DNA from: Phoronis australis
Taxonomy: Eukaryota > Animalia > Phoronida
Direction: 5' to 3'
DNA: 64,000 bases
Assembly (NCBI GenBank): GCA_002633005.1
Contig: NMRA01000511.1
Span: 77,716-141,715, forward strand
Notes under the pieces: generated by a model
What the model was told of the DNA's origin: nothing
The model's database searches: none
Seen by the model: only the letters and a program-made list of their open reading frames with translations
Translations under genes and position numbers: made by a program
Shown here: one piece after another, positions 1 to 28,146 of the stretch
Position numbering within the stretch: position 1 is the stretch's first letter
How the letters are laid out: each line of letters starts with the position of its first letter

Positions 1-88
1 TTTCTCTCTAGAGGGTGTCACAATTCGCACGAGAGTGAGAGACCGGTGGACGGGAAAAAACGTGGAACCAGCGAAGAACTGCGTACCG

Positions 89-264
89 TCAAAAGGGGAT
101 GAATGCAGAGCACTTGACGGAGTGTGCTCGCATGCGATCGGCTCGTGTGAACATGCGCTTGCAGTAGATGCACCTGTAAGCTGTGTCTGTATGCTGTTGC
201 TTCATATGAGTGCGGGTGTTGTTCCAACTGCGAATCACTGTGTTGCACAGCGTACAACGGAAGC
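89..264 (-). CDS. Zinc-finger gene, alternative terminal exon B (one C2H2 + one C2HC finger)
   Basis: Acceptor gatgtcttgcAG at 266/265. The phase-1 frame reads (G)FRCTLCNTVIRSWNNTRTHMKQQHTDTAYRCIYCKRMFTRADRMRAHSVKCSAFIPF*. This frame is not in the ORF track. Confidence 0.85.
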
Positions 265-1807
265 CTGCAAGACATCAACAAGCACGTCTTAGACCAGTAA
301 CAACGGCCATCGGACAGGACGTGCATGCAAGCAACTCTAAACAAGAAGACCAGATCCTTCACAATGCTGTCCTACAGTACATGTATGTTAACAGACCACT
401 TGCGGTTTTCCGTCGCAATAACGATAATAAGTTTTCATGATTTTAGTGAAGAAAACAAGACACTGGTTTGAATACAATCCCCATTTCAGACAACTGACAG
501 TACACTGCCGACTACAAAAATGAAATAGATGAAAAAAAAAATAAAATAATACTCATAACCCCACCCCACACCTTTCTGGGTGGAGCTACTCTTGACAAAA
601 AACAGAACTTAATCACTAATTCGCTATATCAGATATCACTGAGTAAGATAAGGAGAAAGCACTGCCAAAACAGAACGTATCAGTTACCAGAAACCCAAGT
701 CTGCACTCCTCTTCATGGAGGTAGAAAACCACATTGTATGACAGACTTAATATCCACACTTCTGAGCAGAGGAAGGCTGTAGAAGACTGAAACACCACGG
801 CCCACACACATGTTCAAACACTTTATGTCCGCACTGAACTTAACTATGGTCTTTCACTATATTAGAATGGTATTTGAATACAAATTCATTTGATAAAAAA
901 CAAGGATTACCACTACTGCAGCAGAATGAGTCATTTATGTTGGAGTCAGCACTAGTGCGTATAATCTCACTAACATACAGTCAGACCATGTCCATAGGTA
1001 TGCATTATAATCAGTTGAAGAATAACATGACATTATGTTGTAACACTGAGCATCAACAACACTGAAATGTGACCACTTCTACATTTGGCAACTCTTAAGC
1101 CCCTTTCTCTTAAATTTTCCGGTCGCTAAACAGTTTTTGAACAGGCTCACGAAATGCCGCAATGCACAACATGTTATTTGGCAGTTCTAGGTTAACAGAG
1201 TCGTGAACCAGATAGTTTCGCCACCTGGTGATTGTGAGACAAGTCCCATAGTCCTACTGACATGCTACATAGTGGGTAAATACCGCATACTGTCCATTGC
1301 TTAATATCTAAGCAGAGAGAGAATATATTAACATGTATAAAATGCAGAATCATAGAGGGCGTTGTTGGTATGTCAGAAAGTGACCATTCTACACAAACAC
1401 CATTCCCTGCTACAAGTGTTAAACATGGAAGACAATATGAACCACAACACAGACAGTGCTTGCTATCAACCTTCACTTCATCACACGACTTGACGTCAGA
1501 GGGAACAAGTGTTGAACACAAGAGAACGACCATTTCATGTGAGCCAGTAACATCAACCAAGAGTCCATAGCAGCAGGCTTGGTATGCATTATGCAACCAT
1601 TCAAGGTAAGGTCGCTGACATTACTATATCATGTGTGCAGTAAAAAGGTGCCCTGTGAACAAGTGACTCCTGGCTCGTTTTCAACTACCTGACCATACAG
1701 TTCAATTGTAACTAGCTGTAGACTACCATGACCACTTCGACTTGACAACATCCACACTTTCTGTCAATAAGAATTAAATCCATCAAGTGGAGACAACTCC
1801 TCAAGTG

Positions 1808-2124
1808 TCACTGGAAGTGCAACTCCGGATTATGAGGACACTTTTTCTCATGAGTCTTGGCATTGTCCGGCCGGCTAAACACCTTGCGACAATGGCGGCA
1901 CTGATACACATGTCGCACGTCCACTGGCCGTGCGTCGCAATACTTTTCATGACGCACGTGAGAGTCACGCCGGGTGAACCGTGCTGCGCAGTACCGGCAC
2001 GACACGTTCCGACCACATACTCCCTCGTGCTTGGTGAGGCTGGCTGCATTGTGGAACTTATTGCCACAGTTTGGACATTGGAATCCAGTGCCTAGTAAGC
2101 CTCTGTCAGACATGTACGCCAACC
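1808..2124 (-). CDS. Zinc-finger gene, alternative terminal exon A (three C2HC fingers)
   Basis: Acceptor tttctgttgtAG at 2126/2125, phase 1. Fingers CPNC-x12-HEGVC, CRYC-x12-HEKYC, CRHC-x12-HEKKC; stop at 1808. Confidence 0.88.
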
Positions 2125-5100
2125 CTACAACAGAAATAAGCCGTCGTCACCGCGCACCGCCTCACCAGACCCGATGACTGCATCAGAACAGACACACATC
2201 ACGAGAGTCTTGACAACCCCAACACACTTGAGTCAACTGGCAATCACTGGTAGGCATGCTCTTCTTCAGTAGTTTCTCAAATGAGGCGGTGACCATGAGA
2301 GTTTTAATCTTAGCAATGTTTCTATTTTGTTTCAATATACTTATGATCATAGGAAGAGATATTTAAGCATTTTGATGTAGTAAGACTACCTTGCTGATAT
2401 TTAAAAGGCTACTCAACTATAACAGTGTTAGAATCATTATGCCTCAAGGCATGATATCCCAGGACATCACCCATTTGTAGCTATTTATGACCCAGTCATA
2501 TTCAATATTTATGCATATAATTGTCAAGGTATCACACACAGTTTGTTTATATCTCATGTTCACACACTCTATTGGGCTATTTACACGTTCGTTCTAAACC
2601 TCAATTACTTGGACCCTGTTTTGGAAGCCAACAAGTCTATCATTGGTAACCCGTAAATTATGCTTGTAAACTACAGGCATACTTTTCACAAAGCGTTTTA
2701 CGAGCGTAACCACACTTCCCAATGAGACATTTGGTTGTAGGTCACGTGAGCCCTAAAGAACTTGAGCGCTCGTAAAATTACGTTCAAAAAGACAACCACC
2801 AATTACAATAGCCTAACTCATAACTGTGAAAATGGCCAAACTTGGCTACAGTGGGATCATCATATCTCAGATATGGCTGAATGGAGTCATGAAAAACTTT
2901 CAGACACCGTGCTTCGTGCACTGTTCTCAAAAACAATTAGGTATTGTTTTCAAAGTGTTTCACTTTTGCTTGAGATGCTATCAAAAATAAGGCTTTGATG
3001 ACATTCCAGAAAAACATCGAAAGTTGAATAAAACGAAAACAAAGTCATAATTTAGAAAACTATCATGCTGACACTCTTGGTTTTAAGAGCATGATACAGC
3101 AGCGTAATTTATGTGCATAATTGACAGGTGACATTTTCCTCCAAGTGGCCAATGATACAGTCAGAGCAACCCTTCTCTCTCCAGCCTGTTCCACACTATC
3201 CACTCAATACACTAAGTGTGTCATATACAGCCATAATGTGAAGTATGTTGCATCACATGCCTACCAATATAGCACATCAAGTGAAGTTTGTTGCATCGCA
3301 CGTCAATCAGCTCAGGCATTGACACTTCAACACAAAGCAAAGGTATGAACTCTGTGATTAATGAGCCCTGTTCGGCTACGACTAGTAGGGGTTATACAAG
3401 GAACTGCTGTCAAAATACACCGCGACCAAGCAAAACTTGTTTCATAAGGGGCTCACAGTGCTGCCTCGGCTGAAAAGCAAGCGTTCTTGTGTCAAGGATG
3501 ACAACGGGGAGACATAGCAATTTAGGGAGTAGCAAACAACAGATGTATTCCCACGGGCACTAGAGGTCTCCTCCTTCCACACTCAACAAGTTGAACATGA
3601 CACAGAAAGTTTCAACACACAACACGTGCAAAACGTGCCACTTCTGTTTCACTGATGCCTTTGTGTTTGATGAATTACCCAATAATGTGAAGCAATTTGA
3701 CTGTCAGGCACGGACACAGCACAATAGTACTGTGTGCGCCCGTCCTAGTGTGGTCAAAGAAGCTATAAACCTACGTTCCTGCAAAGATTTAGCTTTTAAT
3801 TCCGACCAATTAAAACTATAAAATTGATCTCAACTTGTTTCTACCTCAGATGTGAAGTGCCTTGGTTATAATTGCTAAAGACCATGCTCAGCTGACTACT
3901 GACACGCCCCCTAGCGGAGCCTGATCTTAAACAACTACAAGAAACCAACTTTGAGACCAATTTTATAATGGCAAATTGTGTTAATCAAAAGTTTCTGCAA
4001 ATGAAGGCCAATTTGTAGCTGCATCAACGGACTGTCACACACGAATCACTCAAGCCACAGTGTATATGTATGAGGTCAGTGGTCAGATTAACACAAACGG
4101 GTATTGATGGTACACTAATGGTACACTACCAGCATACAGGAGGCAAGGTGTGACCAAAGCTCATCAACAGTCCGTGACCACATATTTACACAACCTTGGT
4201 CTTGCATGATAAATTGTTAACGCACAGAGAGTGAATTCAAACTAAGAGAGGGGTTTACAATAAATGACTGCAGACAGACTGCGGGCCTAATTACAAATTC
4301 AAGTACAATAAACTTCGCACAAGTCAGAAACAACCACATAAAGAGTTATTCTTCAAGTGAAATACAACTCAACCTATCAGAAGAGACTAGAACACACAAG
4401 AACAACGGAACTTTGTCCGTGTCAAGCAAAGATATGACTCAGGCACCAGTGCTTTCTACAACCTGACTCGACTTGTAGTAATAACAAGTTTGGATTTTGC
4501 AGTAGTGAGTTCAGCTTTCCCGCCAGCATATCCAAAAAAAAAGCGAGTAAGAACAAAATAGATTATCCCTTTCTTCAGACACATTTTAAAAAAAATTGGC
4601 GACCATTCAGTGTTCAATTATCCCGAGGCCTCACATACGTTGAAACGTCTCACAAGTGGACATGTCAATAGACTTTGTAATTTCCAATGAAAATGCGTTT
4701 TCTGTAGTGGAGAACACAGTGCTGAGTACATCTACGCCAGCTTCATTGCATGCATGATATGTAATGAAGAATACAACTCAACCTGACATGTCAAGTGCTT
4801 CTTGTGTACAAGTGCGCATATCTGGAAATCATCATTTGGTGATCAGTTTCACCAAGGGTCCATTCAGGAATAAAGTAATGGATACAGTGGCGTTCAAGAA
4901 AACAGTCAAAAGTACAAATTCCAAGTTTCAGTATGCGTTGACCTTGAAGACACCCTAGTTTACCCATTTTTAAAAACAAAGAATTTTATTCCCCAACATA
5001 AAATTCTGTTTCGTAAATTGTCAAATTCAGTTTTACTGTTATGAAATGGTACACGACAAAAAAGATTCGAGAATTCCCTAACTATTACCACTGAGAAGGG

Positions 5101-6458
5101 TCCCAAGTCAGTTTCTCCAATGCCATGTTGCACGCCATGTATATTGTTTCTCAAAATTGGAAAAGAAAAAGCAGCAACAGAAACAAAGAGTAGCTAAATA
5201 GCTGGATTATGTAGAATTAGATAGATCGCATTCATAGTTTTGGGTTATTGTTAGACAAACATATTAGAACTCTGGTACCCTTTATTGAAACATGGAAATT
5301 CCGCTTGAAATGTCAACTGAACCTCTTCAAATTTTAAGATCATTTTCCAAACACGAAAAACAAGGTATAAAGTACTAAGAATGCACAGGCAGTAGACAAA
5401 ATAATCACAATCTTTTTCTCAAAAAAAAAAAATGAAATACTAAGCTGACAATGAAAAGTAAAATAGATAAATCAAATTCTTCAGTTTTATTTCTCAAAAC
5501 ATTGGTTCCAAAATGGCACTATCATGAAGTCAATGTCCATCTTTGAGGCCAAAGACTGTGGACTTGAAGTGAACACAGGGACAGTGGTATCAAGTTGACA
5601 ACTACTCAAACCTAGCAGAGGTCTTTGTTTTTTATTTTAGTGGCAATACATTCAAAACTTATGTCAATATAGAAAGCATATGTGGTCTTTGGCAGAAAAA
5701 TTGTCATCTCACGCCCGGAAAGTAGAATAGGTAACTATTTTCAAAAAAGGCATACCAACCCTTAACACACACACACACACACACCTGAAGTTGTGACAGC
5801 AACACCAAAAAAAAAAAAAAAAAAAAAAAAAAAANGATTACTGAATGCAATGGTGCAAGCAGTTAATCTCTAAGGAAAAGGAACTTTGCACAGTTGATTC
5901 AGTAAGAGGTGCATATGCAAGCCTAACATGGCCATACAAGTAAGTTTGAAGACACTTGGCGAGTCAGGTCAAGTATAGAAACACCAGAACAGCACAGTAT
6001 CCATGTTGACGCTACAGAAGACAGTGCCCCCTACCTGTTCACAATCAAACCAGGTTTCTGGGTGCACTATTGACTTGTAAACAAATACTGTTAAAAATAA
6101 GAAATTGTGGCTCAGGACCAGGGGTACTTAATTGGCTGGGACTGCAAGGTTCCAGGTTTAGTTGGAACAGAGGACAACAACAGTGAGGTCATGAAGATGT
6201 CATCCACTGGGTCAGCTTCCAGATCAAGATTGAAACTGTCTTCATGAAGATTACTGCATTGTGAGAGTGTAATGTCAAGACAAAAGGACATGATATTAGG
6301 CTCATGACAAAAAATGGTACAATTGTTTCTATGCACCAACCTTCCAACTTCTTTCCTGCACCTTTTCTCATATTAACCTGTCTGCAAGTGGTTGAGGAAG
6401 CGACATGCAGATACTGTACTGTTCTGCCATCTAGTGGTGAAAGCAAATGAGTGCTTAC

Positions 6459-6550
6459 CTGAATCCGTTTGAACAGTGTGTGTTTCCAAAAGTTCTGTAA
6501 CTGAGTCGCGTGCACCGGGTGTACGTTTCGCTGACAATGGAGATGGGCCG
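6459..6550 (-). CDS. Zinc-finger gene, last constant exon
   Basis: Acceptor tttacatttccttgcAG and donor G|GTAAGC. 92 nt, phase 2 to phase 1, GPSPLSAKRTPGARDSVTELLETHTVQTDS. Phases match both neighbouring exons. Confidence 0.8.
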
Positions 6551-7206
6551 CTGCAAGGAAATGTAAAGCTTAGCACCACTTGTACCAGAAGGCTGCCCTA
6601 AGCCCAACATCTGCAGCCGAAAGGATAGCACTTTGTGGCGCTTAGGAAAACATTCACAATGATTTTCAGGGCATCAAAATAAAATTGAAAATTTAGACTT
6701 TGCCATCAAGTGCAAATTGAGTGAATCTCACTGCATACTATTATTAACAATACAATTCACATGTGTAAATATTAGATTAAGTTTCTAAAATTAAGTCAGA
6801 TTTATGTGATACCGTGATAAGGCCCAATTCGAATTCTTTGAGGCTAAATGGTTCACATGACATCACCCAACTGACGGGCAAAGTAATCTCCTTTAACAAC
6901 AAGCCAAGTAAATGTACCTGGCGTGTGGGAGGAAGCAATACAAAACCCTTTTCTATGGCAACACACAACTGGGCTGTGTGTTGGTGTATCAACTAAATGG
7001 ACGGAACTTCCCAGTGCAGAGACCACGGTGAAGAAACTTAAAGTCCCTGATAATTGTCCACTATGGGAGAATTGCGAGACTGCTTACGCGTGGAATACTC
7101 GGGCGATTAAGTACAGTATCACTGGTGCACTTTAAACCCACCATACCTAGATATAGTGCTAATGAATACCTAGGGCAAGGATATTAGTTAAAAAGTGCAT
7201 AATTAC

Positions 7207-7942
7207 GTGGATGGTCCGGCGCGTGGAGTTGTGGGTGTGAGCATGGGTTTATGAACTGGTCTTGCAACTTGTGGTGACATCATGTGAGGAACAGGCATGC
7301 CTGGAACCAAGTGCGACACACTGGTCACAGGTTCCCCTGCTGATACGCTGGCGCCACCACCATACCTATCCAATGTACCGGCGGACTCACTGAGCCACAA
7401 ACTACTGTCACCGGCCTCGCTCACTGCTGGCTTCACATCCTCTCCCTCAGAGTCTGAATCTAACATAACAATGTTTTGGTCCTGCTCCATTTTTATTGCC
7501 ACTGCTGACTGTTCTGCAGAGCTGGCATCAGCCACAGCCACAGTCGCCACCGTTGTGTTCAAAGCAGAGTCAGATGCTGAGGTTGTTAGTGGACTAGATT
7601 CCATCTGTTGCGAAGTCGCTATGCTTGCCGAAGGTGTCGGCGGCAATGCAGGTGTCCTCACACTACGTGATATGGCATTTTTTAATATATTAGCCACGAC
7701 ACTCTTGGGTCGCGCTGGTCGGGCCCTATTAACCCCGCCACGACCCCGTCTAGCGGCTGTCCCGTGATTACCACGCCTGTTGAACGAGAGTCCAGAGTAG
7801 CTCCTAGGCTGACTAGCACCAACAGTGGAATTATGTTGAGAAAGAAACGCTGCACTTCCCAACTGCACATTGCCGCCCTCCTTGCTCCGTGGCCATTGTG
7901 ACGGATCATTGCCTGCTGACCACGATGCTGAGTTTTCATCAC
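7207..7942 (-). CDS. Zinc-finger gene, large constant exon (low-complexity linker)
   Basis: Acceptor ttatcttcAG and donor AC|GTAATT. 736 nt open, phase 1 to phase 2. Contains a basic RRGRGG tract, a SUMO-type motif IKME and a SIM-like NIVMLDSDSE. Confidence 0.82.
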
Positions 7943-9002
7943 CTGAAGATAACACCATGTTAGAACACAACAAATATACCCAACGCAGCAAACAACTGCA
8001 GCGGGGAATGTAAAAGCAGATGTCAACCAAATGTGAATGAAATCAAACACAGCAGTGTAACATGGATGGGCCCAGAAAGTGTAAGTACTCCACAAACCTT
8101 CTAATCAATGCACACAAATAACCTCAAGCTCTTAACACATCGCATTAACAACATTAAACTTCACCCAATGAGTTTGGATCACTTGAGTGGAGTTTGATAA
8201 CTATTGTAAGAATGTTTAAAAATCAATGCTTCAGCAGATCAGAATCTTGTGGAGTTGACAAAATCAACCTAACTAGAAATGGACCTCATGTCACGGGGCA
8301 TTCTGCTATAGGGCAACAGTCGGATATGACGCGTCCACAATTTGAGAACCAATTTCCTCAACTGAATAATGGACTGGTTCTCAAAACACGGGCACTTCAT
8401 ATCCCGCTGTTACCTGTTGCATTGCTTTATTGCTGTCTTTGTGGGATGTTGAATCACTACTGTGAAGCAGGTGAAACTAGTAAGACTGTGTGTTCCTCAG
8501 CCTACAGGCAGTTTGGTAGGCTTGAAGAGCGCAAGTAAATGGCATGCCTTCATTTGAAACTGAGATATAATGATGCTGACCAGCCACTGAATTGTCTCTG
8601 TTCAGGTGAAAACTGTGATGGTGTTCACACTGTGTTACACATGTACAATTGACCTCATAATGTTCCTTGTCCATATGACTTCATTTCTGTTGCCAAACAA
8701 AAACATTGAAACTATCAGCGACACCAGAAAAGGCTTCAAAGTTAACTGGGGTTAGCCAAGCCTGGGTTAGCCAAGCCGACATTGCCCATTTGAAAATGGT
8801 GCATGTGCGCATTGCCTCCTCTTACTCGAGTTATTAGTTCATGTGCCAGTAATTTAAGATCGATGAGCTTGGCAATTTTCTAACCTCAAAGGGTTTCGCT
8901 CAAGAATTCAACACTGACAGCGTAACAGGGGCAAAATGCAACTAATGCACATGGCCTTCCAAGAAATGCATGTGAAAGCTGCAAATATCATCAAGGATAA
9001 CC

Positions 9003-9135
9003 CCTTACTGTCTGTTAAGAGTCATGTGACCATACGCACAAATGACTAACCACTTATTGTCTGTTAAAGAGCCATGTGACCATACACACATAAAGGCTAA
9101 CCACTCACTGTCTGTTAGAATCATGTGACCATATA
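9003..9135. repeat. ~50-bp tandem triplication spanning the exon end and donor site
   Basis: Three copies of (c/t)tgtctgtta..g(t/c)catgtgaccata at ~9008, ~9058 and ~9108. Confidence 0.8.
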
Positions 9136-9247
9136 CTTTATACTCTGCCACCTTCAGGTCTAACCAGGCCACAAAATGAGATATAGTGTCGCCTTTGGCT
9201 TGTAGAATCATGGAGCAGAAGTTGACGCGAAGCCTGTCTGCATCCAT
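9109..9247 (-). CDS. Zinc-finger gene, first coding exon (short helical N-terminal domain)
   Basis: Acceptor tttgcAG at 9295/9294, ATG at 9247, MDADRLRVNFCSMILQAKGDTISHFVAWLDLKVAEYKVYGHMILTD. Strong phase-1 donor A|GTGAGT compatible with the exon starting at 7942. Confidence 0.72.
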
Positions 9248-9819
9248 CTTGAATGTTCACCACACTGTTGAAGTCACCCAGGGGTAGCAGAGTCTGCAAA
9301 GCACAAGACTACACTTTGGTTTGAGTAACACATAACCTCGGATTCAATAACGTTATGCCAATACATAGCAGGCCTTGACAACAAGCAGCAGCTTGTATTC
9401 ATAACCTGAAATTTGGAAATAAGAGCTGCGATTCTGACAGACTCACATTAGTCGTATATTAGCCAAATATGCTACTTTCTGAAGGTGCAACACACACACT
9501 CGCTATGCCATGAAAATATCCTTCCTCATATGACACACAGCGAAGTTGACTTAAGATCATACATCACAGCTATACTGCAAGAGTAACAAAAAAAAAACAA
9601 AAAAAAAACGTGGCGCGTGAGTACACATTTTCATGTGTTTTCTCTAAGGCAACACTATTCAAAAGCCCAGGAAAGTCTATGTTTTTATACATTGCAGGGT
9701 TTCCCGTGTGTAAACTTCTGGGAGGCCCGCCACGCTCCTGTTTGGCCACACCACTCGTAAATCATACTCAAATTGACCGCCACACACCTAATCATGACGG
9801 GTAAACTTCACTGCCACGC

Positions 9820-9960
9820 AAAAATCGCTAGTAAAAATGATCGCTAGTGATCGCTAGTAAAAATGATCGCTAGTTAAAAATGATCGCTAGTAAAAATGAT
9901 CGCGAGTAAAATGATCGAGAGTAAAATGAATCGCAAGTAAAAAAATGATTGCTAGTAATA
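9820..9960. repeat. ~16-bp minisatellite (aaaaatgatcgctagt)n
   Basis: About 8-9 imperfect tandem copies visible. Confidence 0.9.
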
Positions 9961-10439
9961 ATGAATAAGTACAAGTCACAAGGCACCTTTCGCTGTTTGT
10001 GGATCGAAAGGTAAAAATAATAATTTTACATTGGGATCTTGAATTGTGCCCCAGTTAAACACAATCATCCAATCCCCAATCCCTTTTTGTACCTCGTTTC
10101 TGCCTGGTTATCTGACAATGCATATAAACTTAATACAGCCGGGGACCAGGCAACGACCTCGATACGAATTTTCTAACATGTGCCAGGGCTGGCTAATGAA
10201 GTAAGAAACAGTATGATTTCTGCTTCATTAATTTTATTGTGTCCGAGTTTACAAAAGACATTATGAATTATACTGCAGGGCATGACATCCAACTGTTCAA
10301 TCAACAATAGCCCCGCGCCAAAATGGCAATATTGAAGGTATTCTCAAACTCGTCTGCATCATGTGGACTGGATTATACATCGTCTGCTACGCCGGCCAAC
10401 GCCATTCCACTATCGTTGATTTATGTTTAGGTGTATTCC

Positions 10440-11450
10440 ACAGTATTCGTTTTGTTACAGATGTGACATTCAGACACTTTAAATTCCAATATAAAATTAG
10501 TGAAACATCACAGTAGTAAGAAATTTTAAGTACACATTACACACTTGATGGAAGCACTTCAGGTATCAAAAGTTTTTAATTCTGCACATTATAAGTGTAC
10601 TAAAATTTACTTTTAATTAGTGTTACAGATGTGACCGAAAATGCCATGGTTAATATGCTAATGGTGGTTTGTCTAAAAACTCTGTTCTGTCTTTCATATT
10701 ATGGAACTAGTTTCCCTATAGATAATTTAACTATTTATTTGGCTATAACATGAAGAAAAGGTTTTTGAACTAAAATCAAGTCTTTGTATAATTATGAGCA
10801 ATTTAAAAAAACCACGTGCGTTACAGATGTGACTGTTACAGATGTGACTATTTGGCACTTGCACTATACAGAGTTGTAGAATGCAATTTTAATGAAAACA
10901 AAGCTAATAAAATCACATTAAGTGTATGTAAGGGTTGTGGGTAAACTATTTTAGTGTTTTTGATAGATGGAGTCTTAAAATTTACTTTGCTTGTTTGCGT
11001 GCACCTGTGTTTTGAGCTTCATTATGAAATTGTGGTCACTGAGAGAAAAATACAACAACTATACCAAGTAAGTCCTTAAACCACCTTGAAAAAGTTGAGT
11101 TTAGTAACAGGAGTAAATCAGGTACAACTAACTAAGACCAACATAAACACTCATGCAGGTATAATTACGAAGTGACGTGAAATGCTGACATCACGTACTG
11201 AGCTAAAATCTTAGGATTAAATTTTGTTTAGGCTGCGACAGTTGGTTGTCCTTGTAAATTATTCTGAGCAATGATTGATATGCAGAACAGGCAGTTTTTT
11301 GATTATTTGGTCCAAGTCGATCCATGTGGTGTCGTCTTGTGCTGGTAAACTGAACGCAGTCTTGTTACTATCTGTTTTTCTCATGACAGTGACTTTGATA
11401 CCATCTCTTTCAACCATCATGATCTATGCAACGTTTGAGCTCCTAGGACA
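10440..11450 (-). mobile_element. Probable DNA transposon relic with repeated GTTACAGATGTGAC motifs and a decayed coding fragment
   Basis: The motif occurs at 10454, 10622, 10820 and 10835. The minus-strand fragment IKVTVMRKTDSNKTAFSLPAQDDTTWIDLDQIIKKLP (~11295-11410) resembles C-termini of pogo-like transposases (recollection, unverified). Confidence 0.4.
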
Positions 11451-11454
11451 CAAT

Positions 11455-12292
11455 TGTTCCATCAAAATTGGAATCCTAGCGTGAAACAAATATCCCGGAG
11501 TCTAAACAGCTAACCAGCCCGAAAAACAAACCCGGCTTTTAAAACGCGAACCCCAGTGATCAAATAGGGAACCTTGACAATTTTTCAAATTTTCTAAGAC
11601 AACGTCAATAGCCTCAAACTGAGCATTTTCTAGTACTTTCCATTTGTTTTCTGAATTTGTTAAAGATTAGCATTAATAAAACGTAACTTACGTTATGTTG
11701 AATTGTTGCTTAAACTCGTGCAATTTGTGGTCACCAACTCTTCTGTTCTTGTCTTCAAGAAGAGTTACTTCAACTTCTCAATGATCACTAAATTTGGAAT
11801 CGGAATTTCTGAACTCCACGCATTCACATGCTTTTTTGGTAGATAATCCCTCAGAATTCTGTGACCATTGTGGCATCCACCACTCAAGCACATGCCATTT
11901 TTCATTGTGCACCCTGTCTAGTACACTGTACACATCCTCGATTTAAGAATGAACACTTTTTGCTACAGATCAGTCCTAAGTTGTTTAAAACAACATATCA
12001 CATCAACTATTTAAAATAGGAAGATTTATTGTTTCATCAAAATGTGAAATTGATACAAGTCGTATGAACACAGAGTGCTAATAAAGGCACTATTTTCTTG
12101 CGATAAACAATGTTGGAAAGCAAGTACAGGAGTGGTGTTTCGGTCCGGGGTGTCCTGTCTGATCCCCAGGGTTTCTGTTTTAGAGGTCGGGGTTTGTGTT
12201 TTTCGGGCTGGTAAGCTGTTTTGAAGGTGCGGTAGTACGTTTTTGACTCTGGCCTATCTGCTTAACACCGTAATACCAGTTTTGATGGAACA
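11455..12292. mobile_element. Foldback/MITE-like element with ~110-130-bp imperfect terminal inverted repeats
   Basis: TGTTCCATCAAAA..cagctaaccagcccgaaaaac at 11455-11561 mirrors 12161-12292. No clear TSD. Confidence 0.7.
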
Positions 12293-12459
12293 TCTTGCTT
12301 GAAACGAATACCTCGGAACTCANTGCCTTGCCTAGACGTCATCTTGAGTCATTGAGCATTCAGTGCCATAAGTTGATGTCAACAGTTAAACTAATGACCT
12401 AGTTTGTACTTGAATGCCACTGGTTGATTTAGAAATGAGACTGAACCCCGAGATCTTAA

Positions 12460-12727
12460 TGTGGAGGATGCAGATGTCGAACTCGCCAATTTCACTCATA
12501 CCTTCCACCCCTACATATTTCTAGATCACGTAATTCCCACTCTCATACCTTTGAGAGATCATACATTCGCACTGCGTACTATGCTAACTCTTTCTTCCCA
12601 TCTACCATTCACAATTCATCATCTCGTCAGAAACAATAGAGATGTTCTCAGGTCACATCTTGAGCATCAATCTTACACAGTAAACAATAAAACCTGTTTT
12701 TATCCAGGCTCTGTTGTTATTTCCACA
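12460..12727 (+). mobile_element. Possible solo LTR
   Basis: TGTGGA...TCCACA termini and an AATAAA ~40 nt before the end. No matching TSD. Confidence 0.35.
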
Positions 12728-13276
12728 GTCATGCACAGTTCAGTTTATTATTAACATGCGCCAAAATGTAAGGATCGATATTACAATTGTAAATGGAAAG
12801 AAGAAGCAAATTCTTGTGCAGAAAACGTGAAACGAACAGAGGATGATCAATTTAAACTCCAGGTATGTTTTTGAACTATTGTGAACGTCACACATTTCAC
12901 AAAATTTCTTTGACAACCGCCGCTTGCAAAAACTGCAAGCAAAGCCAGCACTTTTGCAATGTTGTGTGATTACATAACCTCGGTAATTACAATAGTGTAC
13001 TGCTTATGCAAGTACAAAATAATGTCAAAAGGTGTCGAATATGGGTACATTAAAGTATTCATGCTGTTTCTGGCACACTGTTTTTCACATTTTATTCTAT
13101 CAATAATGAAGTCCCAGGCCAGGGTTAGTGGCCTCGCCCTCGCTCGCCTGTGCTTTGTTTGCCAAGGTTTTCTCGCAAGAATGAATTTTTATTTTCCGCT
13201 ACGATACAAATATCCACATAGTTTGTACTTTAGATTAGGCACTTAGAATGACATTTTCAGAAAATAGTTTACTCAC

Positions 13277-13350
13277 CTGCGAAGAATGAAAGGGCACGAA
13301 ACGTGGTTAACATTCACCTTCTTGAAACATAAAGAATAAAATGGCGGCCC
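13277..13350 (-). promoter_or_regulatory. Probable non-coding first exon of the zinc-finger gene with a YY1-type motif
   Basis: Strong donor CAG|GTGAGT at 13276 and GCCGCCATTTT (plus strand aaaatggcggc, ~13338-13348). TSS not determined. Confidence 0.5.
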
Positions 13351-13964
13351 TTCCCAGAGTTCATTGCGCGGCGTCTCTAAAAAGAAGTTTTAATAATTAT
13401 CCAGTTTGTATACAACAAAGTTACTCCTTGATATCAATGTAGTAAACATTTAACATTAATATGCTTTTGATTTTCACTGATCTAGACATTTTCCAGTTTG
13501 TAACTATCACGGCACCACAGAACAGGTGAAGTCACAATCAATTTAAATAGACCTGTAGCGATGAAGTGGTTCTCGAGAGACAAAATCATCTACATATGAC
13601 CGACGCTCATCGGACTGAAAAAATGTCGATTTTCCCGCCGTTGAACTTTTGCTAGTTTGGCATTTAGTAACACGACCTGACATTAAAATATATGTTGTAA
13701 ATGGCGTCATACTAGACAATAGGCATTTTCAAGTGCAGCCAGAGGTGTGACTTGATTAGAACGGCAATTTTGAATTTATTTAGAGACAAAACTCCTATTT
13801 TACTCAGGCTGGCCATCCTTTTGAAATGGCGGCTTATTGGTGAAGTGCAGGGGCTGTAATCAGGATTTTAAAACTGACTTGTATCTGAAGAGATCAAAGG
13901 ATTTTTGAGCTAAGATGAAAACGACTGAAGTCGGAGACCGCTAAATATGTTGCTCATGAAAAAC

Positions 13965-14448
13965 ACGATGTTCAGCCTCAGTAACAGGCTAAAAACTGGT
14001 CATGTGAAAGATTCCTGGATCCCTCTCAGTGTTCAGCTCTATTAATGGTCTCTTCAAGTTCACCAGTGTTTATATACCAGGACACTGTGGCATCTCAGTC
14101 AACGTCAAGGCGGATGAGCTTGCAGGCATCGCAGAACCGATTGCCAACCTGCTCCTCACACCACGGCAGCAGATGTAATCTCCAGAGTGCGTGAATCGCT
14201 TGCAGATGCCAAGATTGTACGACAGCAGGAGAGATGGGCAACAAAGCGCCTCATAGAGCGAGGATGGCAATACGGAGATGCAGCAAAAACTCGTATCAGG
14301 GGAAAAGCGGTCGAAGAGTGTGTAACCAGCACGAGCTTGTTTGCATCTCCAAATTTACATTGCGTGCGATCACTGGAAGGAGGAGGGCCAGAGACTATCC
14401 CGATGCCTACCCTCTGACGTCAGTCACCACAGAAACAGAAACAGAAAC
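13965..14448 (+). mobile_element. 5'-truncated non-LTR retrotransposon 3' end (Ingi/I group) with RNase H relic
   Basis: YIPGHCGISVNVKADELAG (RNase H PGH..N..AD motif) at 14071-14127, then RLIERGWQYGDAAKTRIRGK..RRVCNQ with frameshifts, then a (CAGAAA)3 tail. Confidence 0.75.
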
Positions 14449-16059
14449 ATTGAAATATAATAACACAAATTTGAAAGTAAAACGTGTGATAGTGTGGACT
14501 TGAAATACGGGTAGTATAGTGAGATTTAATATGGAATGACGGAATTACTTTTCTTTTTTCAACGCGGGTTAAATACGGTTGCCTTATTTCTCGCCAAAAT
14601 TCCCACCTAAGGACACAATACACTACAACTAGTAGAAACATGATTATATATATAGCATCAGTTTGGGTTCAGCTCCGTGAGCAATATTTTCTGATGCCAA
14701 TACTATGATACGAGTACTGGAAACTAAACGATAAAGTGAAATAAAAATATTGTTGTCAATGGTTCTTAATAGATCTGAAATTTTGTTCCCGATTAGAACA
14801 CTTGAATCACAAAAAGTCTCTAACTTGCTACAATATATTTGGGATTAGGAAAGCAATATACATGTACATTACAAATGCATGCCTCCTTTTGGTCACCGGT
14901 TGCACTACACCAGTTGATATTCTTTACGGTCAAATACGAGTCAATTTTTAAATTCGTTCTCAAAACATTCAAAATACGCCGAGCCCAAAAGCAAAACCGC
15001 AAGTTCTTTAAACACTGTACTTTTGTCAATTTACGATAAACTTCGGAATACTTTCTACCTAAAAATAATAAGAACGTACCGCGCGCAAGGAGCATTTGTA
15101 AAAAGCGTCTGAACGTGCATCAGCCACAACCGTTTGGACCGTGGTCCTGCACAGATATTACTCAACGAAGTCAAGAAAAATCGTCAGAACAGGAAGCAAA
15201 CTTTAACTAAGAAATAAGATTTAGCTCAAACTCTGACGAAAATAACGAAAATAGCAGATATGCACCCCAAGCCTGTAGCTGCTGTAAAATACAACTTGAA
15301 CTGTCGTCTCATGCAGGCAGCAAAAAAAAACTCCATTCATGAAAATAGGCCTATTGCTTCGCCCTCGTTCAAATACTTTTGCACATCACGAATCTTGATA
15401 TAATAACCACTGGTACAAACACGTACGTTGTATAACCTATATTTAAAAATAATGGTGTAATTTCTGTTCAACAGCCAAAAACATTAAAATAAGAGATATT
15501 CATAATCCAGAAACACACATTTACTTGCGATGACGTAAGATTGAAAATCAGTAACCGCAAAATATATATATAAATACTAAAGCCGAGGTCAAAACAATTA
15601 AGTCTAAGAACTGTCGGACATCGTACAACAAAACTAGTCAGTGGATTTTCGTCAACCCATGAAAATTACATTACGTCAGTGGCGCTTTGATTGTTTAGGC
15701 AGTTGTAAATAATTAAACGTTTCTCAGTCGTAATTTTCAAAGTAGACTTCGAGTTCTGATTGGCGTAAATGCGTGGTTATCATTCCTTACAATGTGTTGC
15801 AGCCCAGTATCATGGCGGGCATTTATTTGGTGTTACAACTTCTGGTGCCAAGTGTCCAGATGGTGGGGAGTTTATTCAGAAAATTTCCTCTTAAAAGTCC
15901 ACTTTTAGCCACAAATACTCTTTTGAGAAGCATTTATCGTGTATAAAAATGAGAAGTGTTTGCATTGGCGTAGCCAAAACTATGACTTTCCGAAGAAAAC
16001 CATTTAAAGACTATTAAGGAAAGATACATACGAGTACGGTCTAAACTTCATGCATAAAC

Positions 16060-16410
16060 CTACGTGTCGTAGTACTCTATCTGGGCCGCGGTCGAGGATC
16101 TGGCATCACTCGCTTTAGAACGGAAGCAGTTTGTTCGATATTTATAAAATTTGCAAATATACTTATAAGGTGGTGAGTCCTTCATTGTAACACTGCTGTT
16201 GTGTGTAGTCGAAAAAAATACTTCGAAATGGGCCGAAAAAAGTGTGGCATCCGACTGAATCGCATGTTCCACGCTGACATCCCACACTCTCATGCAGCGC
16301 ACAAACCGATGCCATTTCTGTGCAGCTTTCGCATAATTACAAAATTTGAACACAGATACGTTCTTAGTCAAGTTGTTGTTACCACAGTCTCCACAAACCC
16401 ACCTGTTCAT
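16060..16410 (-). pseudogene. Degenerate THAP domain, likely from a non-autonomous DNA transposon
   Basis: MNRWVCGDCGNNNLTKNVSVFKFCNYAKAAQKWHRFV...DATLFSAHFE follows the THAP C..C / F-P / W / CSxHF pattern with substitutions. Confidence 0.65.
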
Positions 16411-17642
16411 GTCTGAAAGAAGTCGGCTCTCCACGGGCTTTCCTCACAACTCCGCACTGGTAAAAACAACGGCAGAGACCGTCTTCCATCCGTTGCTTAC
16501 AAACCCGATAACATAAAAAAAATACATTTTTTTAATTTTTGTTTTTTTTTTCTTAGGAACAGATGTACTAAAGGCTGTCAAATCTCTCAAGATACGTTAA
16601 TAGAATTTCTTTTGAGACACAGGGTCATAGTGGTCCTTTTGCGACATATCGCGTTACTGAAAAAATGGAAATGTCACAGTCGGAAAACTGATTTCGAACT
16701 TCCGCGTTAGGTCACGACTTCGACATGCGTCACTCCCCATCTCACCGTGGTTGAAAACTTGCCAGCTCGTTGAAAACAAAGTGGGTAAGGGGGTCATTTT
16801 CCACGGCTCTCTATTACTGCTAAATCAGGGCGTTTCCAGATGGTCCTGGCTGTTCTCAAGATCATCGTGTAATAGATAAACATGTAACGTTGGACATGCT
16901 CTTCCGTGTGTGTTTTTTCGGGTTTAAATTTCAATTTGCCTGTCCGTAGGACAACTGCGCACGCTCCGTTACTTTTGAAAACGCTTGTTTCAATCATTCT
17001 GATATTTTTGCTGGTGCACTCGTCACTATCAGATGGGACCGCAAGAAAATAAATAAGCTGTATTTAAAATACATGTATAATTAGAAAGATGCCCAGAAGC
17101 GACTTCCAGTAACCGTATGTATTATTCTCCTTCAATCAAGAGTTTCCAGGATAAACGGCAGTTTTTGTATAAATGGCGCAGGCTTGCATCCAGAGGAGGG
17201 GTTGGAGGAGGTGGAATCTCTTGCTCAGCTAATTTCGTATTTTTATTGATGGAAGAAACAAACCGGCATCTGGTCCTTACTATTCCTTACTGTTGCCATG
17301 TTGATGATTGGTTTCCACAAAATAATTTCAATCAATCAATCGATCAGCTTTATTTATGATTTTCGTTCAAGGAAATCGCCACGACTGGCACGTATTTGTT
17401 TTTGAGTGTTTCATGAATCAGTTTCGCGCAGTAAGCGATCACGTGATGCCTATGGCGTCGGTTCCTAATAAACACGTGACGAGTAGGCAGAGGAGGTAGT
17501 CCCTTCACCTGCGGTACCTGAAAACATAAAATCGACGCTTAAAGTGATGATAATTTTAAAGTGATTTTTGTAGGGTATGACGTCCATATACAAGACCAAG
17601 TATAAGCTCGATATAGATGCACCTTTATTTGAGCCCAAAGAC

Positions 17643-17710
17643 CATGGGTGGTGCAGCACTGAACAAAATGGCAGTATAGCCCCCAGCCCCCTATGGTGCA
17701 CCGCCTATGA
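17643..17710. mobile_element. Tiny MITE, copy 1 (CATGGG(T/C)GG(T/C)GCA-type TIR)
   Basis: catgggtggtgca...tgcaccgcctatg; related copies at 19499-19567 and 19571-19629. Confidence 0.6.
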
Positions 17711-19117
17711 TATTACTACAGAGAGAACTACTTCATACACAGAGGGTGTTGTTACCACGGTGGATAATGATAGGATACTACCACAAATTTCTCAAAACAA
17801 CATATATAAAATGGAGTTCAAGGTACCGCGTGTGCATTACATCTAACAGAAATTGTAAACGTGTTATAAACCCCTACTTTGTAAGAATAATTATTAAGGA
17901 ATGTAGGTCACCCTTTTGGTCATTTTACGATACCAGTTGTCAACCAAATTGGTCTGATTTTTTTACTAATAATAGAAAATCGATGATTTCCTTTGAGGAG
18001 TTATCCATATTTTTATTTGTCAACAAAATGCCCCAATCATAGAAATACTTGTCAAAGCAATGATTAAAATACAGACAGGCCAACAAACTTATTCTTTTCT
18101 GAATGCTCGAATAAGCTATAAATGGAATACTTTTTCTTCGCTGTTGCATGCAGCCAACTTTGTAGCGGTAAACTGGTCGAAATTAAACTTCCGTTTTGTA
18201 GCCGCTTTTCAATGACATCTAGCGCAATGTTACTGTAACGTATGCGCACGCATGAGGCTGAAGGCATCTACATTTGTGTATATGTACGTACATTTTTACA
18301 AGAAGCTGTGCCTATATCCAGACATAAGTGCATCAGCCTATATGCTAAACGTTTGAGTAAAATCGAGGTACAGTTTTTAAAACAAGCTTTAATTAAAATC
18401 AAAATTAACTTCTGCGTTGAAAACGAGTGCAGATGTTGAAAGGAACCTAACTCGCCATGTTTCAGAAGAATAAACAGTACTAAAACGTACAAAAGCACCC
18501 GGTGTAAGACCTACACGTTAACAACACACTGTGTCCAAGTGGGCCTACTACGAGGCGTACACAGTCAAAGTGTGATGAAACTGACTTGTTTAAAATAATG
18601 CAGAAACATTCAGACATTTCTAAGGTTGCCCAAAGACGACATCGCGCTTTTCTTTTTTAATTATCTCAGGATCTCGAGATCCCGGGATGAACAGGAGGGC
18701 CCACAACGCGGGGGCCCGTGGCAGTTAAGGGGGCCTGTCGGTGAAGGAAAAAACACAAAAAAAACGGCAAAACAAAAAACAAAAGTTCCAAAGGTTTGGG
18801 CCGGTCGGCCTCAGTTGGAGAAGGATAATAACACAGAAACCCACGAGGGGCCTTCAAAATTTGACAGCAATGACAACTTTTACGTTTAGAACTTCCATCT
18901 GTCAACAGTCCAGATAACATGAACTTAGATTTATCACTCCACAACAGATTTACGTGTCTGATGGGAAAATTCTAAAGATACTTTTCCGCTTAAAACTGCA
19001 GTACTACTAGTTTTGGTGGCTGAAAAAATAGAGCTCTTACTGCTATAAATTTTCCAACAATTATTCAGACATCGATGATGTGATTGATTTCATTGACTGA
19101 CAAATATCGATGTCAGT

Positions 19118-19629
19118 GGCCGGTTGCATGAAACAATCCCAAATAGGGACTCAACTAAATATTTTTGAGTATTTGTGTCTTTATGGACGCACAGATGCAA
19201 TATTTTTCTATCATTTCTTTTTTATTATGAACTCCTCTTAGATTAATGACATCTTATAATAATAATAATACTAAAAATTGAGCCCGGATTTCATTGAAAT
19301 AAATAGGGTGTTGCATGAAAAGAGCGATAATTGTTTTCGATAATATTGACAATTCAAAGTAGAATATACTCTCGATTTGTGTCAAAGTCAAAAGTTGACT
19401 TGACTTAATGATGAAGATAAAATAATACAAGAAAGGGCAATCGATGAATTCATAAGTTCAAAAATACGCAGTAGATTTAGGTAACTTTGTTGAGTCCCTA
19501 TGGGCGGCGCATCAATGAAAAAGTGGGGGACTAAAACCCCTCAGCGACCTGTGGTAAACCGCCCATAAACCATGGGTGGCGCAACACTAAAAAAGAGGGG
19601 CTATAGCCCCCTATGGTGCGCCGCCCATG
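19118..19629. mobile_element. MITE (ggccggttgcatgaaac-type TIR) whose right end is interrupted by two tandem tiny MITEs
   Basis: The left TIR 19118-19157 is complementary to the family right end seen at 23755-23792. Shared aaatacgcagtagattta at 19462 and 23728. Tiny MITEs at 19499-19629. Confidence 0.55.
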
Positions 19630-22600
19630 CCTGCGCGAGATTCGCAACAAAGTACATAAGAATGTAGTCGTTGCTTTACATTACGATGTAATTTGGAAGA
19701 TTACCGTTTTGATTGCTATCGATACGTACTTCTGTCGTCATCCGATTCCGAATACGAGTCGTAAAATCGGTAGCTTCTAAACACTGCAAATAAATGAAAC
19801 CCGATGATTTACTCGATGGATGAACACAGACAAACGAAAGTCTGTAGACCCACTTGCGTTTATTGTAGGATTGCTAAGGCTTGAAATTTAGAAAACGATA
19901 TTAGAAGAACGACCTGTTTACATTTGAAACTCTTTTTTGCGTTCACCTAGCTCTAAGTCAAGGATAGACAACTACCTGTTTAACGTCTTACACACTTATT
20001 CAACAATGATACACACTTATTCAACAATGACTTTCAAAATAGGCTTGGCACTTGTCATGTGCAAAATACGAAAAATGAAAGATTATCTCATCAAAGATCA
20101 AAAGTAGACAATCGGAAGAAGCAGCTGCGTCCCAGTGTGTCGGCATAAAATGAGCTTCAAAGTATTGGCGGGATATACAGATACACATCCTGTTGTTCAA
20201 AGGTTGTAGAATTGTTTCAGTACATTGGACCTTGGCGCGTGAAGTTGTAACAAAAAGCGGCAATAAACAAGCATTCAACCGAGGAAGCTAACTTTGTACT
20301 TACACAATTCGTTACGCTAAATATGGGTCTTAACTTGGTTCTTACTTAGATAAGAACTTATTTTTGGTCTTGCTGACTGTTCGCCATTGTTCGAGACCAT
20401 GATCGATAAAAAAGACGGCGTGGCAAGTCAACTTACTAAATCAATGTTTCAAGTAACAATGAGCTGTCAGTTCTTTGTGAGACCGGAAATGACACCTATT
20501 TTGACAAAGGAACAATCTGAGACGAGTTTGATAACAATAAGCGGTCTTTGTCACAAATGTTTAGTTTATTATATTTTAAATAGATTAAATAAGCTTTTGT
20601 ACCACAAGATGGCGCTCGAGAGTTTTTAGTGGTTTTGGACATGGACGACAGGTTCACTCGGCACCGACAATCCAAACTTTGTAGATTGCAACATGGAAAT
20701 ATGAAGAATATGTTTTGACAGAAACTCTGTTGACGTCAAAACGAATTGATTTCTAAGTGAAAGTCACATCTGTTACCAAAGGTAAGACTGACCGCTGCAA
20801 ATACACAAACGTGGAAATTTCCGTTAACCACGATACATAAGCGGAAACGACAGCCATTACCGAGAGGCGTGCTCGTACACTACACTTCTCAAAATGGGTG
20901 GTCATTCCCGAGTTCCATCCCAGTAGCAGCCATAACGGGTGGGCACATATACATTATAATCAATTGCTGCATTACCCAAATATTTAGTGCGCACGTTTTA
21001 AAAATCGTCAAATAATCAGTGGAAGCGTCTCACATCCGTGATTGCATGGCCACGTCCATCTGGAATACCTCGGGTATTTCCGTAACGTCAGTTTCAACCT
21101 AGGAGGTGTTTCATGTCTGTGCAGGGTGCAAACTTTAACCAAACAGCAAATAGACCAAGAAACGGTCAAAAGCCATGACTTAGAGTACGACGTCTTTCTC
21201 AACCGCCCCGATCGCCTCCTTAAACGTAAATATTGTTAATTTTTGTTATTTTTGAGGGGGGATTAAAGCTGAAGCCTTCTAAAAACCTTCCTTCAATCAC
21301 CACTTGCCCTTAGGAGATTAGTCTCAAGTTGTTCTTTTCTCAAACTGGAAGTAATGTTATCGTTCCAAAACACTAACCAGGTTCCGCAGACCGGCTCACT
21401 CATGGCCTTGTCATTGAATGCTTCTAATCATTTCTTGAGTCCACTGCCAGTTCGCTATGATAGCGAACTGGCAGTTATTTGTACATCCATAACGCACTTC
21501 TAACTTGAATAAGGAACAAGGTGGGGCCACTTCAATAGCGGAAAGTGTTCTAAATTACAGATTCGGAGACAACGAGATAAATGTAGCTCACGGTTTGGAG
21601 CTTCCTTAACGGAACCCGTGTTTATGTTACGTCAGCCATTTTGTAAGTCACGTGACTTGCTGAGAGGAGTAGAGTTAGAACATATGCAGATATGAAACAC
21701 TTCCGAGGGGGATTTTAGGTTACGAACATACAAGAGAAGTTCCGGATGGGTCTTGTCTGGTTTCTTCAAGCTCGCGAGAAACTAACGGAAATGTCCGCAG
21801 TTCCCATAAGGTGGCACTGAACAGTTAGACTGCGGCCGCGGCCAATTTGCACTCCCCAAAATATTAAAATCTAGGGGTACGCCAGGCTTGGGGGCATTTT
21901 TTAGTTAGGTATTGTATGTAGGCAAAGTGAATTTGGTTTGTTTGTATTTGTGAACATGCTGAGAATTAAAAAAAGGCCACTTTCTTGGCTGTAGTTGCAC
22001 TCTTCTTCAAGATGGTGGCCCCCTGTTGCAGTTGTGCATTGCTGTGTATCAACTGAGAAATTGGCCGCGATTTCAGGTAGTCCTCTAACAAGCCAGATTT
22101 GCAAAAAAACTAGTTGGTTGACAATACTTTTGGACCACATTTTTGGAATTGGTAGGAAATTTGCTTTCGGAATCTAATGTTGGCTTTAGTCGATCATCGG
22201 CAGAGAAGTGGTGGTTTTGGGGTGAAATGTGCCGATTTTGTATTTTTTGTCCTTATTTTTCTTAGTCTAGCTTGGTTTCCACTGGGAGTGAAAGGGTCAA
22301 AAATACAAGAGAGAACAAAGATTTTGTGCTCATCTGTAGGGATTGTGATGTGAAATGACTCAAAACGTTTCTTTATTTGCATGCAGTTTTTGACAGAGTG
22401 AAGAAAGGGTGAAGAGTACATTGACGTGTGTTCTGATAGGCAAATCCCTGTGTGAACTGTTCAGTCCCTCCTAAGCCATTTTACGGATAAACGAAAACAG
22501 GCGCGTACGCATCCCATGATAGATATTTTAATGATATGGTTACTTTTCACCATCTGTTTCAGGATAATGGGAAAGTTTGGCGTTTCATCTTTTAATCAGA

Positions 22601-23122
22601 TGCAGCTGTGACACCTCTCTCATATCGAGGTCAAACCTTCCCACATAGCGGTCCCAACGCCACATCGGCCCCCGGATTAACAGAAATGACTGTCAAAATG
22701 AACACAATTACCTTCGGGGACTGGTCCAAAGATCCAACACATCGAAGACAAGATGAAGAAGAAGAGAAGAGCGGAAGAAATTGCTATGGACAAAATCTGA
22801 ATGTCGGAACCATCAAAGACTTTCACTTCTACTTTCACGCTTTCCACTGGAAACAACGAGTCAAACATGGCAGCTATAGGGTTCACTTTCAGAACGAGCT
22901 CTAAAAATCCTGACCGTGCATTGCGAATACTAGGCACATACATGTATGCATGTAAAATTGAATCGAGCAGCGTTTTTCTAAAATAAACCAAGGAATTGTT
23001 AGACGCTACCTGTTCAATTTGCTTAAAAATGACCTGGTTTATTGTATTGTTCTTAGGTCAACATTTATAAGAAATGACAATATGATAATCATATGATAAT
23101 TATAAGACTGTCAAACAGTTAC

Positions 23123-23213
23123 CAGATTCCTGAAGCGTGAGCACATCCGCTAATTGCGTCTTAATGTCGCATAATTTTCCTTCATACCCGTCGGGGCACC
23201 AACATGAAAAACT
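23123..23213 (-). CDS. EGF/FN3/mucin gene exon (end of EGF domain)
   Basis: cAG...G|GTAACT; SFSCWCPDGYEGKLCDIKTQLADVLTLQES; phase 0 to 1. Confidence 0.82.
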
Positions 23214-24527: not shown

Positions 24528-24642
24528 CTTAAACCAATCCGTGCACAGTGCCTGGTGCTTGCACGGTGACGATTTGCACTCATCGATGTCCACTTCACAT
24601 CGTGGTCCCTCGTATCCCGTAGCAGTGCAGTCACATGTAAAC
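24528..24642 (-). CDS. EGF/FN3/mucin gene exon (EGF end + calcium-binding-type EGF start)
   Basis: [38 protein letters not shown]; phase 2 to 0; donor AAG|GTACGT. Confidence 0.88.
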
Positions 24643-25572: not shown

Positions 25573-25657
25573 CCGTCTTCATTCTCTTTACATCGACCTT
25601 TGTTCTTACACGGGTTGGGCTGGCATCCGCGTACAGCTGGTGCATGTCCACTTATAT
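25573..25657 (-). CDS. EGF/FN3/mucin gene exon (EGF start)
   Basis: tttcAG...GG|GTAAGA; DISGHAPAVRGCQPNPCKNKGRCKENEDG; phase 1 to 2. Confidence 0.85.
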
Positions 25658-27690: not shown

Positions 27691-28146
27691 GGTCAGCACA
27701 TCAAACTACAAACTGTATCCACACTTACTTTTCCTCCATCAATCATGCCAGTTTGTTTACGTAAAGCGCTACCTGTTGACAATTTGAACAGATGGTTTAA
27801 AAAATCCCGAGGAAAATTAAATGATACCTGCGTGTCCTCTACCACCTAGCGGACACGCAGAGAATCAGCGAGAATAAAACAACATCCTGTGTAAAGCACC
27901 ACCTAGTATACACTGAAGAAGACACCAGGAATGGCAGATGTCGAAAACAAGTTATGTACTACGTTTTGGATGGAAATGAATTTCCTTGTATCAATATTGT
28001 TTGAAGAAATGGGTATTTAGTTGCAGTGTTGTGCAGCGAAAAATTATCAATGTTCGATGTCGTCCAATTTCTTTTGAAAACTGTTGTACTATGAGTCACC
28101 ATATATATGAGTGACGTCAATCCCAAGCTAATAAGTCCGCTATTAC

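Follow-up and report, generated by a model that had tools for sequence, protein, structure and literature searches.

In a 64,000-nucleotide (nt) stretch of the Phoronis australis genome (contig NMRA01000511.1, positions 77,716 to 141,715; this whole stretch is called the window in the following), a gene on the minus strand combines one constant front of 322 codons with alternative last exons, each of which supplies its own zinc fingers. The front begins with a small head that is predicted to consist of two helices and to form a homodimer. We regard it as likely that this single gene gives rise to a panel of transcription factors whose members would read different DNA sites. The original prediction had described it as a counterpart of Drosophila lola and mod(mdg4) without the N-terminal BTB domain.

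The coding parts of the three constant exons (9247-9109, 7942-7207 and 6550-6459) comprise 139, 736 and 92 nt and add up to 967 nt, equivalent to 322 codons plus 1 nt. The exons have AG acceptors and GT donors and end in phases 1, 2 and 1, and splice sites, reading frame and RNA joints all confirmed the arrangement that had been predicted. Fusion of the constant part with 2124-1808 (exon A) results in an open frame of 427 amino acids (aa), fusion with 264-89 (exon B) in one of 380 aa. Both frames end in TGA and both tails pass the Pfam cut-off for zf-C2H2 (30 and 27.8 bits, cut-off 25.2 bits); two alternative phase-1 terminal exons with different fingers and their own stops were therefore found as expected.

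Features of the gene and of its last intron. Positions refer to the window.
Feature	Positions	Strand	Remarks
Leader exon, 3' part	13277..13314	-	non-coding; 5' end beyond the mapped part; GT donor after 13277
Constant exon 1	9109..9293	-	46-nt 5' untranslated region (UTR), ATG at 9247, 46 codons + 1 nt, phase 1
Head domain within exon 1	9110..9247	-	46 aa, N-terminal; predicted two helices, predicted homodimer
Constant exon 2	7207..7942	-	ends in phase 2; low-complexity linker
Constant exon 3	6459..6550	-	donor 6459, phase 1; switch point
Predicted intron stem	5977..6445	-	arm 15-50 nt past the donor (~6406-6445) pairs with 5977-6003
Variable last exon A	1808..2124	-	three C2HC fingers, own stop
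Variable last exon B	89..264	-	one C2H2 and one C2HC finger, own stop

For the analysis of splicing, RNA sequencing data were aligned to positions 1-12000. We used four public runs labelled with the same species, one contig set and three raw stranded runs (X2, X3 and X4); the raw runs are three samples of a single study, and about 18-19% of each was read. The constitutive joins were covered by 31-59 reads per raw run (9109>7942 by 33, 45 and 31 reads and 7207>6550 by 48, 59 and 45 reads, in the order X2, X3, X4, which is kept below). Both junctions predicted for donor 6459, and not just one of them, were detected in each of the three raw runs: the join to exon B at 264 with 10, 3 and 7 reads (20 in total) and the join to exon A at 2124 with 3, 2 and 3 reads (8 in total). 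The RNA depth between the exons is above zero, which would fit zinc-finger exons that are separate genes with their own promoters; the direct joins from 6459 to both acceptors and the phase-1 acceptor on which each exon opens leave this explanation with next to no probability. Exons A and B each account for a minority of the joins (8 and 20 of about 108 donor reads), as would be the case if the tails were stray or transposon-derived zinc-finger fragments that are included by leaky splicing and have no selected function. We consider this very unlikely, because A and B are intact, in phase, equipped with their own stops and used in all three runs, no single tail dominates, and the protein family described below shows conserved arrays.

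Together, A and B take 28 of the approximately 108 reads from donor 6459, and about three quarters of the reads go outside the window. Mixed loose ends at this donor were present in 31, 23 and 22 reads (76 in total), with a median loose length of 48-66 nt. The consensus agreement of this pool was only 0.57-0.61; the three consensuses obtained per run differ pairwise at 6-8 of 30 positions, and each contains a C-x-x-C motif. In a simple simulation of how often few exons yield an agreement of 0.61 or less, this value was reached in at most 1.5% of the trials with two exons and in 3-17% with three. Among the rows listed for a second alignment (6380-6620), X4 contained a clean start of a third tail (4 reads, agreement 0.99), which translates as V-Y-Q-C-G-I-C-G-T, the start of a zinc finger. 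All four loose-end motifs are absent from both strands of the window, where the best matches have 11-12 mismatches of 30 (11 in the case of the clean third exon). From the low agreement, the simulation and the clean exon we infer that the mixed pool stems from at least three outside exons, which together with the clean one makes at least four further exons and six or more tails in all. The original prediction had placed more variable exons to the left of position 1: their existence outside the window is supported by the 76 mixed and 4 clean reads, the location to the left being presumed. Apart from exons A and B, a six-frame finger scan of the window detected a single weak motif (33838-33978). 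In 1-6458 there are nine further candidates for phase-1 acceptors; the sequence behind them has no recognisable coding content, and the listed RNA joints include none of the nine. In the last intron, a single N at 5835 beside a poly-T run is possibly the trace of an assembly gap, in which additional exons could be hidden; Ns are also present at 12323 and 30416.

At the 5' side of exon 1, loose ends at 9301 were found in 27, 45 and 27 reads with an agreement of 1.0, and their 30-nt motif occurs once in the window, at 13285-13314. Since these reads map to the leader exon, the leader ending at 13277 is spliced onto the acceptor at 9293. Three codons upstream of the ATG an in-frame TGA is present, BTB is matched by none of the 51 frames with a length of 45 aa or more on the minus strand of 9248-20000, and exon 1 itself has no Pfam match at E<=1. 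The gene is without a BTB domain, as the leader joins exon 1 directly and a stop lies just before the ATG; no BTB exon had been missed. The start of exon 1 at 9293, the end of the leader at 13277 and the departure of most donor-6459 reads from the window are additions to the original prediction. The linker encoded by exon 2 comprises a basic RG-rich patch and an acidic stretch, and a single-sequence word search found no homologue of it. Six of the nine listed differences between RNA and DNA in this exon are synonymous.

The constant body that had been proposed is real, but it is not featureless, because its first 46 codons encode a conserved head domain in the place of BTB. A single-sequence word search with exon 1 found nothing. 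A full HMMER scan with the 46 aa revealed 29 hits, 22 of which match at or near the N-terminus. The other seven, multi-stretch matches to part of the query, were set aside; the two of them that were examined are a repeat protein and a bacterial secreted protein. In ten clusters the named members were looked up and are molluscs, one cluster containing in addition three unrelated 54-aa entries. Using a profile of 18 sequences (alignment A1), 107 proteins were recovered among 7993 scored candidates. All rows of this search with a species name are bivalve, abalone or cephalopod; as the seed sequences of the profile came from molluscs and the search was word-limited, this species list is not the full range of the family. 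The domain is located within the first five residues in 205 of 218 stored proteins that contain it, many of them isoforms, and the window domain shares 42-53% identity with the mollusc domains in alignment A1. A phase-1 intron (GT) follows right after the domain in three of three metagenome loci; the intron in the window is also phase 1 and lies two codons later. Judged by its sequence, the window gene is a member of this mollusc head-domain family, with no assignable orthologue; from this, its source is probably a lophotrochozoan. The search with the head of the constant region led to a family in which several genes have annotated isoforms that likewise combine a constant part with variable ends. 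In databases the family members bear only automatic names, and a literature search that included locus ids and the core motif found no description of the family; supplements and most subscription papers were outside its scope, and a mention may exist there. In Solemya, Mytilus californianus, Pecten and Sinanodonta, several head-domain paralogues of the respective species appear to share one chromosome, and one Solemya family member ends in DUF3504/QRICH1 instead.

The 18 aligned head domains match no Pfam family and gave no KRAB/SCAN/ZAD-type match at E<=1. Neither a PDB sequence search nor Foldseek gave a match for the domain, the best VIA match (4.5) fell short of the limit of Z>=5, and the ESM Atlas yielded only scores under 0.8; for a two-helix model such structure-search nulls neither name nor exclude a fold. 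AlphaFold2 predicts two helices (residues 3-16 and 19-39) with a predicted local distance difference test (pLDDT) value of 90. Complex prediction of the homodimer resulted in a score of 0.45 in three runs, compared with 0.00 for the best of three controls; the contacts of the model agree by at least 97%, its pLDDT is 80, and the predicted interface contains the invariant residues F10, F25, W28 and L29. In a calibration of the mark, 21 of 30 solved homodimers and none of 23 monomers attained it among microbial proteins, and 17 of 29 homodimers and none of 30 monomers among eukaryotic ones. According to these models the head domain is predicted to form a homodimer.

The fingers of exon A have the residues N-A-S-K, R-D-S-R and R-D-N-T at positions -1, 2, 3 and 6, those of exon B S-N-N-T and R-D-R-A. 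Three of the five fingers combine Arg at -1 with Asp at +2, which is the guanine-reading pair of classical DNA-binding fingers. The closest finger pair between A and B is 38% identical, and the two exons are therefore not a recent duplicate. These fingers could also mean that the exon swap is real but that short C2HC sets bind proteins or RNA, in which case the isoforms would differ in their partners and not in their DNA sites. Four of the five fingers are of the C2HC type, their linkers are non-canonical and two or three fingers give short sites; moreover, PMC13490949 calls one of the mod(mdg4) tails a protein-interaction domain. Against this stand the Arg(-1)/Asp(+2) pairs in three fingers as well as the HTH_psq, BEN-like and basic-helix modules that sister genes carry in the tail slot. 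We consider protein- or RNA-binding tails unlikely and prefer DNA-reading ones.

The sister genes were analyzed with respect to their C-termini. For LOC117322409 of Pecten maximus, 15 isoforms are listed (of 16 cluster members); they share a prefix of 485 aa and have 15 different ends. The same pattern was observed in Argopecten (14 ends), Mizuhopecten (15 of 16) and Ylistrum (9). In these four scallop genera the ends diverge within a four-helix domain, at the residue with which its last predicted helix begins; this helix is basic and amphipathic with near-constant arginines. Within one gene the ends share a mean identity of 35-37% over 20 aa, yet 13 of 14, 14 of 15 and 8 of 9 ends (Argopecten, Mizuhopecten and Ylistrum) are matched in Pecten at 80% or more, a sign that each end is under selection. 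None of six mussel ends reaches 80%, but five of them have a reciprocal best match, at 50-75%. In Mytilus californianus, LOC127730008 switches between 14 ends inside a weak BEN match (E 0.01; 16.5 bits, cut-off 23.2 bits). LOC127730005 of the same species and its orthologues (P0085-P0110) show two tiers, consisting of two penultimate modules with an own set of ends each; here one of two DNA-binding-like domain bodies appears to be followed by one of several last helices. In each of two Octopus species (e.g. Octopus sinensis LOC115213480) there are two ends with zinc fingers, the ends of Potamilus CHS0354_022052 are of the C2H2 and HTH_psq types (HTH_psq E 1e-8), and the protein pair P0002/P0030 shares a common body with two unrelated tails. 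On the level of sequence matches, the tails of the family appear to be recognised DNA-binding folds, namely C2H2, HTH_psq and, weakly, BEN. A structure search with the scallop tail domain gave a top Z of 5.4 (capicua HMG-C1, root-mean-square deviation 3.0, 61 aligned) and homeodomains at Z 4-4.5; it did not recover BEN, and there was no real PDB sequence match.

Like the window gene, Drosophila lola combines a constant N-terminal part with alternative C-terminal exons for different zinc fingers; 17 of its 20 isoforms have a unique finger motif, and the BTB is constitutive (bioRxiv 10.1101/132027). The head of lola is a BTB of the Tramtrack type, in contrast to the 46-aa two-helix domain of the window gene, and lola uses a mixture of cis- and trans-splicing. 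In mod(mdg4), the common exons are combined with one 3' exon out of about 30 alternatives, which are exclusively trans-spliced from independent promoters (PMC13490949), and the tails are mostly FLYWCH (PMC11426971). Common exons with alternative 3' exons are shared with the window gene, and in the mollusc relatives the switch can fall inside a DNA-binding domain; the BTB head, the FLYWCH tails and the trans-splicing have no demonstrated counterpart in the window gene. In the BEN factors Insensitive, NACC1 and BEND3 the C-terminal helix 5 region reads the DNA major groove (PMC8887127). The mussel relatives similarly swap the C-terminal part of a BEN-like domain (Pfam match below cut-off), whereas the tails of the window gene are zinc fingers. 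With the mollusc family (Pecten, Mytilus, Octopus and Potamilus) the window gene shares the N-terminal domain, the phase-1 intron after it, a long low-complexity linker and C-terminal isoforms; it differs by the long branch of its domain, the later position of the intron and the linker without detectable homologue. Tramtrack-type BTB domains are reported to be absent outside arthropods, Mollusca and Annelida having been searched (PMC11426971). As the gene also contains no BTB, it is not a member of the Tramtrack group: it works like lola and mod(mdg4) but does not belong to them, and the design is probably convergent with that of the arthropod BTB genes.

In the mechanism that we propose, donor 6459 would pick one of several downstream acceptors by competition in ordinary cis-splicing, and each last exon would supply its own fingers and its own stop. 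In this scheme, dimerisation would be the task of the head and recruitment of cofactors that of the linker, while the choice of the DNA site would depend on the tail. Head-to-head dimerisation would offset the short arrays of two or three fingers and would let two isoforms pair on composite sites. The RNA depth in the last intron raises the question whether the variable regions are instead transcribed separately and their tails attached mostly by trans-splicing, as occurs in mod(mdg4) and, in part, in lola. On the gene's strand the depth at 2400-6400 is about 1-12 in X2 and X3, compared with 0-0.8 in the constitutive introns, and in these two runs no read covers 6443-6451 just past the donor. 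However, exons A and B are both located downstream on the gene's strand, as cis-splicing needs, and 2 reads of X4 run from exon 3 into the intron. The decrease of the depth toward the 5' side fits a pre-mRNA with retained intron and 3' bias, and the peak in the 6001-6400 bin (11.8 in X2 and 4.2 in X3, with no listed joint into the bin) may be a repeat or a separate exon. The coverage by these short, unphased reads is ambiguous; we consider trans-splicing as the main route unlikely and favour cis-splicing from donor 6459.

The last intron also contains a predicted stem with 17-nt arms that are 94% complementary (-32.5 kcal/mol; background -18.6 +/- 3.0 kcal/mol, best outside control -26.5 kcal/mol). 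The element at the donor can pair with the regions before exon A (-23.9 kcal/mol, spotted post hoc) and before exon B (-19.4 kcal/mol); of 88 control windows, 4 reach the first of these values and 25 the second. For exon B, a shared docking/selector pairing found no support. Because the pairing is moderate before A and not notable before B, a docking/selector mechanism of the type described for PGRP-LC (PMC6191721) is not established. A search of Rfam found nothing. Inside the loop of the stem, 6112-6252 on the minus strand follows an AG at 6253 and contains a protein-like acidic frame of 46 aa with a stop; it fits the phase of the donor of exon 2, not that of exon 3. This segment is possibly an extra last exon, a repeat or a separate transcript.

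The original prediction had suggested an independently evolved cassette for DNA-binding specificity. This reading is supported, the DNA-binding specificity being the presumed part. A wider interpretation is tentative, with the balance slightly against it. It holds that lophotrochozoans independently evolved a specificity generator of the lola/mod(mdg4) type on an uncatalogued dimerisation domain, and that alternative last exons allow the whole family to exchange either sets of zinc fingers or individual recognition helices. The isoforms would pair via the shared head for combinatorial composite sites and would possibly be chosen per cell by RNA pairing or trans-splicing.

Several points in addition to the C2HC fingers and their linkers weigh against a panel of DNA-reading isoforms. 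The DNA binding of the tails is deduced from a residue pattern and the dimerisation from a prediction; amphipathic helix pairs may readily be modelled as dimers, and just one of seven eukaryotic homodimers without an older solved relative reached the dimer mark. The domain of the window gene forms a long branch (0.72) and falls into no supported clade in a tree built from 74 domains and 46 columns. Every junction read stems from one study. On the gene strand, neither AATAAA nor ATTAAA occurs in 265-1807, the segment that separates the stop of exon A from exon B, and the 3' end of isoform A is unmapped; over 401-1600 the RNA depth is about 7-12 in X2 and X3, and the 3' UTR of isoform A may be long and run through exon B. 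The mollusc isoforms are annotation models of databases and were read without genomic layout. Many family members have one database entry, the three isoforms of Mercenaria have one C-terminus, and a zinc-finger gene of Argopecten varies internally. Finally, the evidence for selection comes from paralogous scallop genes, whose tail fold differs from that of the tails in the window.

In earlier descriptions, a constant part with variable tails appears as a feature of arthropod BTB factors. The RNA-supported occurrence of this design on an unrelated head domain, with family members in bivalves, a gastropod and cephalopods, suggests that the combination of a dimerising head with a swappable DNA reader arose by convergence. 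It would add a candidate to the short list of dimerisation domains BTB, SCAN, ZAD and KRAB, and it suggests a hidden layer of diversity among the transcription factors of non-model invertebrates. In the relatives from scallop and mussel it is only the last helix that differs between about 15 conserved versions, and these relatives could serve as a natural library for recognition codes.

The window contains further features. Upstream of the leader exon, a minus-strand frame at 16063-16443 with a weak THAP match (E 0.0016, below the cut-off) is probably the remnant of a P-type transposon. Also on the minus strand, frames at 22680-31346 resemble a receptor or secreted protein and include a mucin-like internal repeat at 27962-28522. 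An exon series on the plus strand at 41709-57369, which we take to resemble an SLC22-type transporter, contains a tandem repeat at about 56500-57330; those of its pieces that were compared with Pfam had no match at E<=0.01. Retroelement fragments are located on the plus strand at 39123-39539 and 62385-62759; one piece is presumably GIY-YIG-like, and the reverse transcriptase piece matches Pfam RVT_1 with E 8.6e-7.

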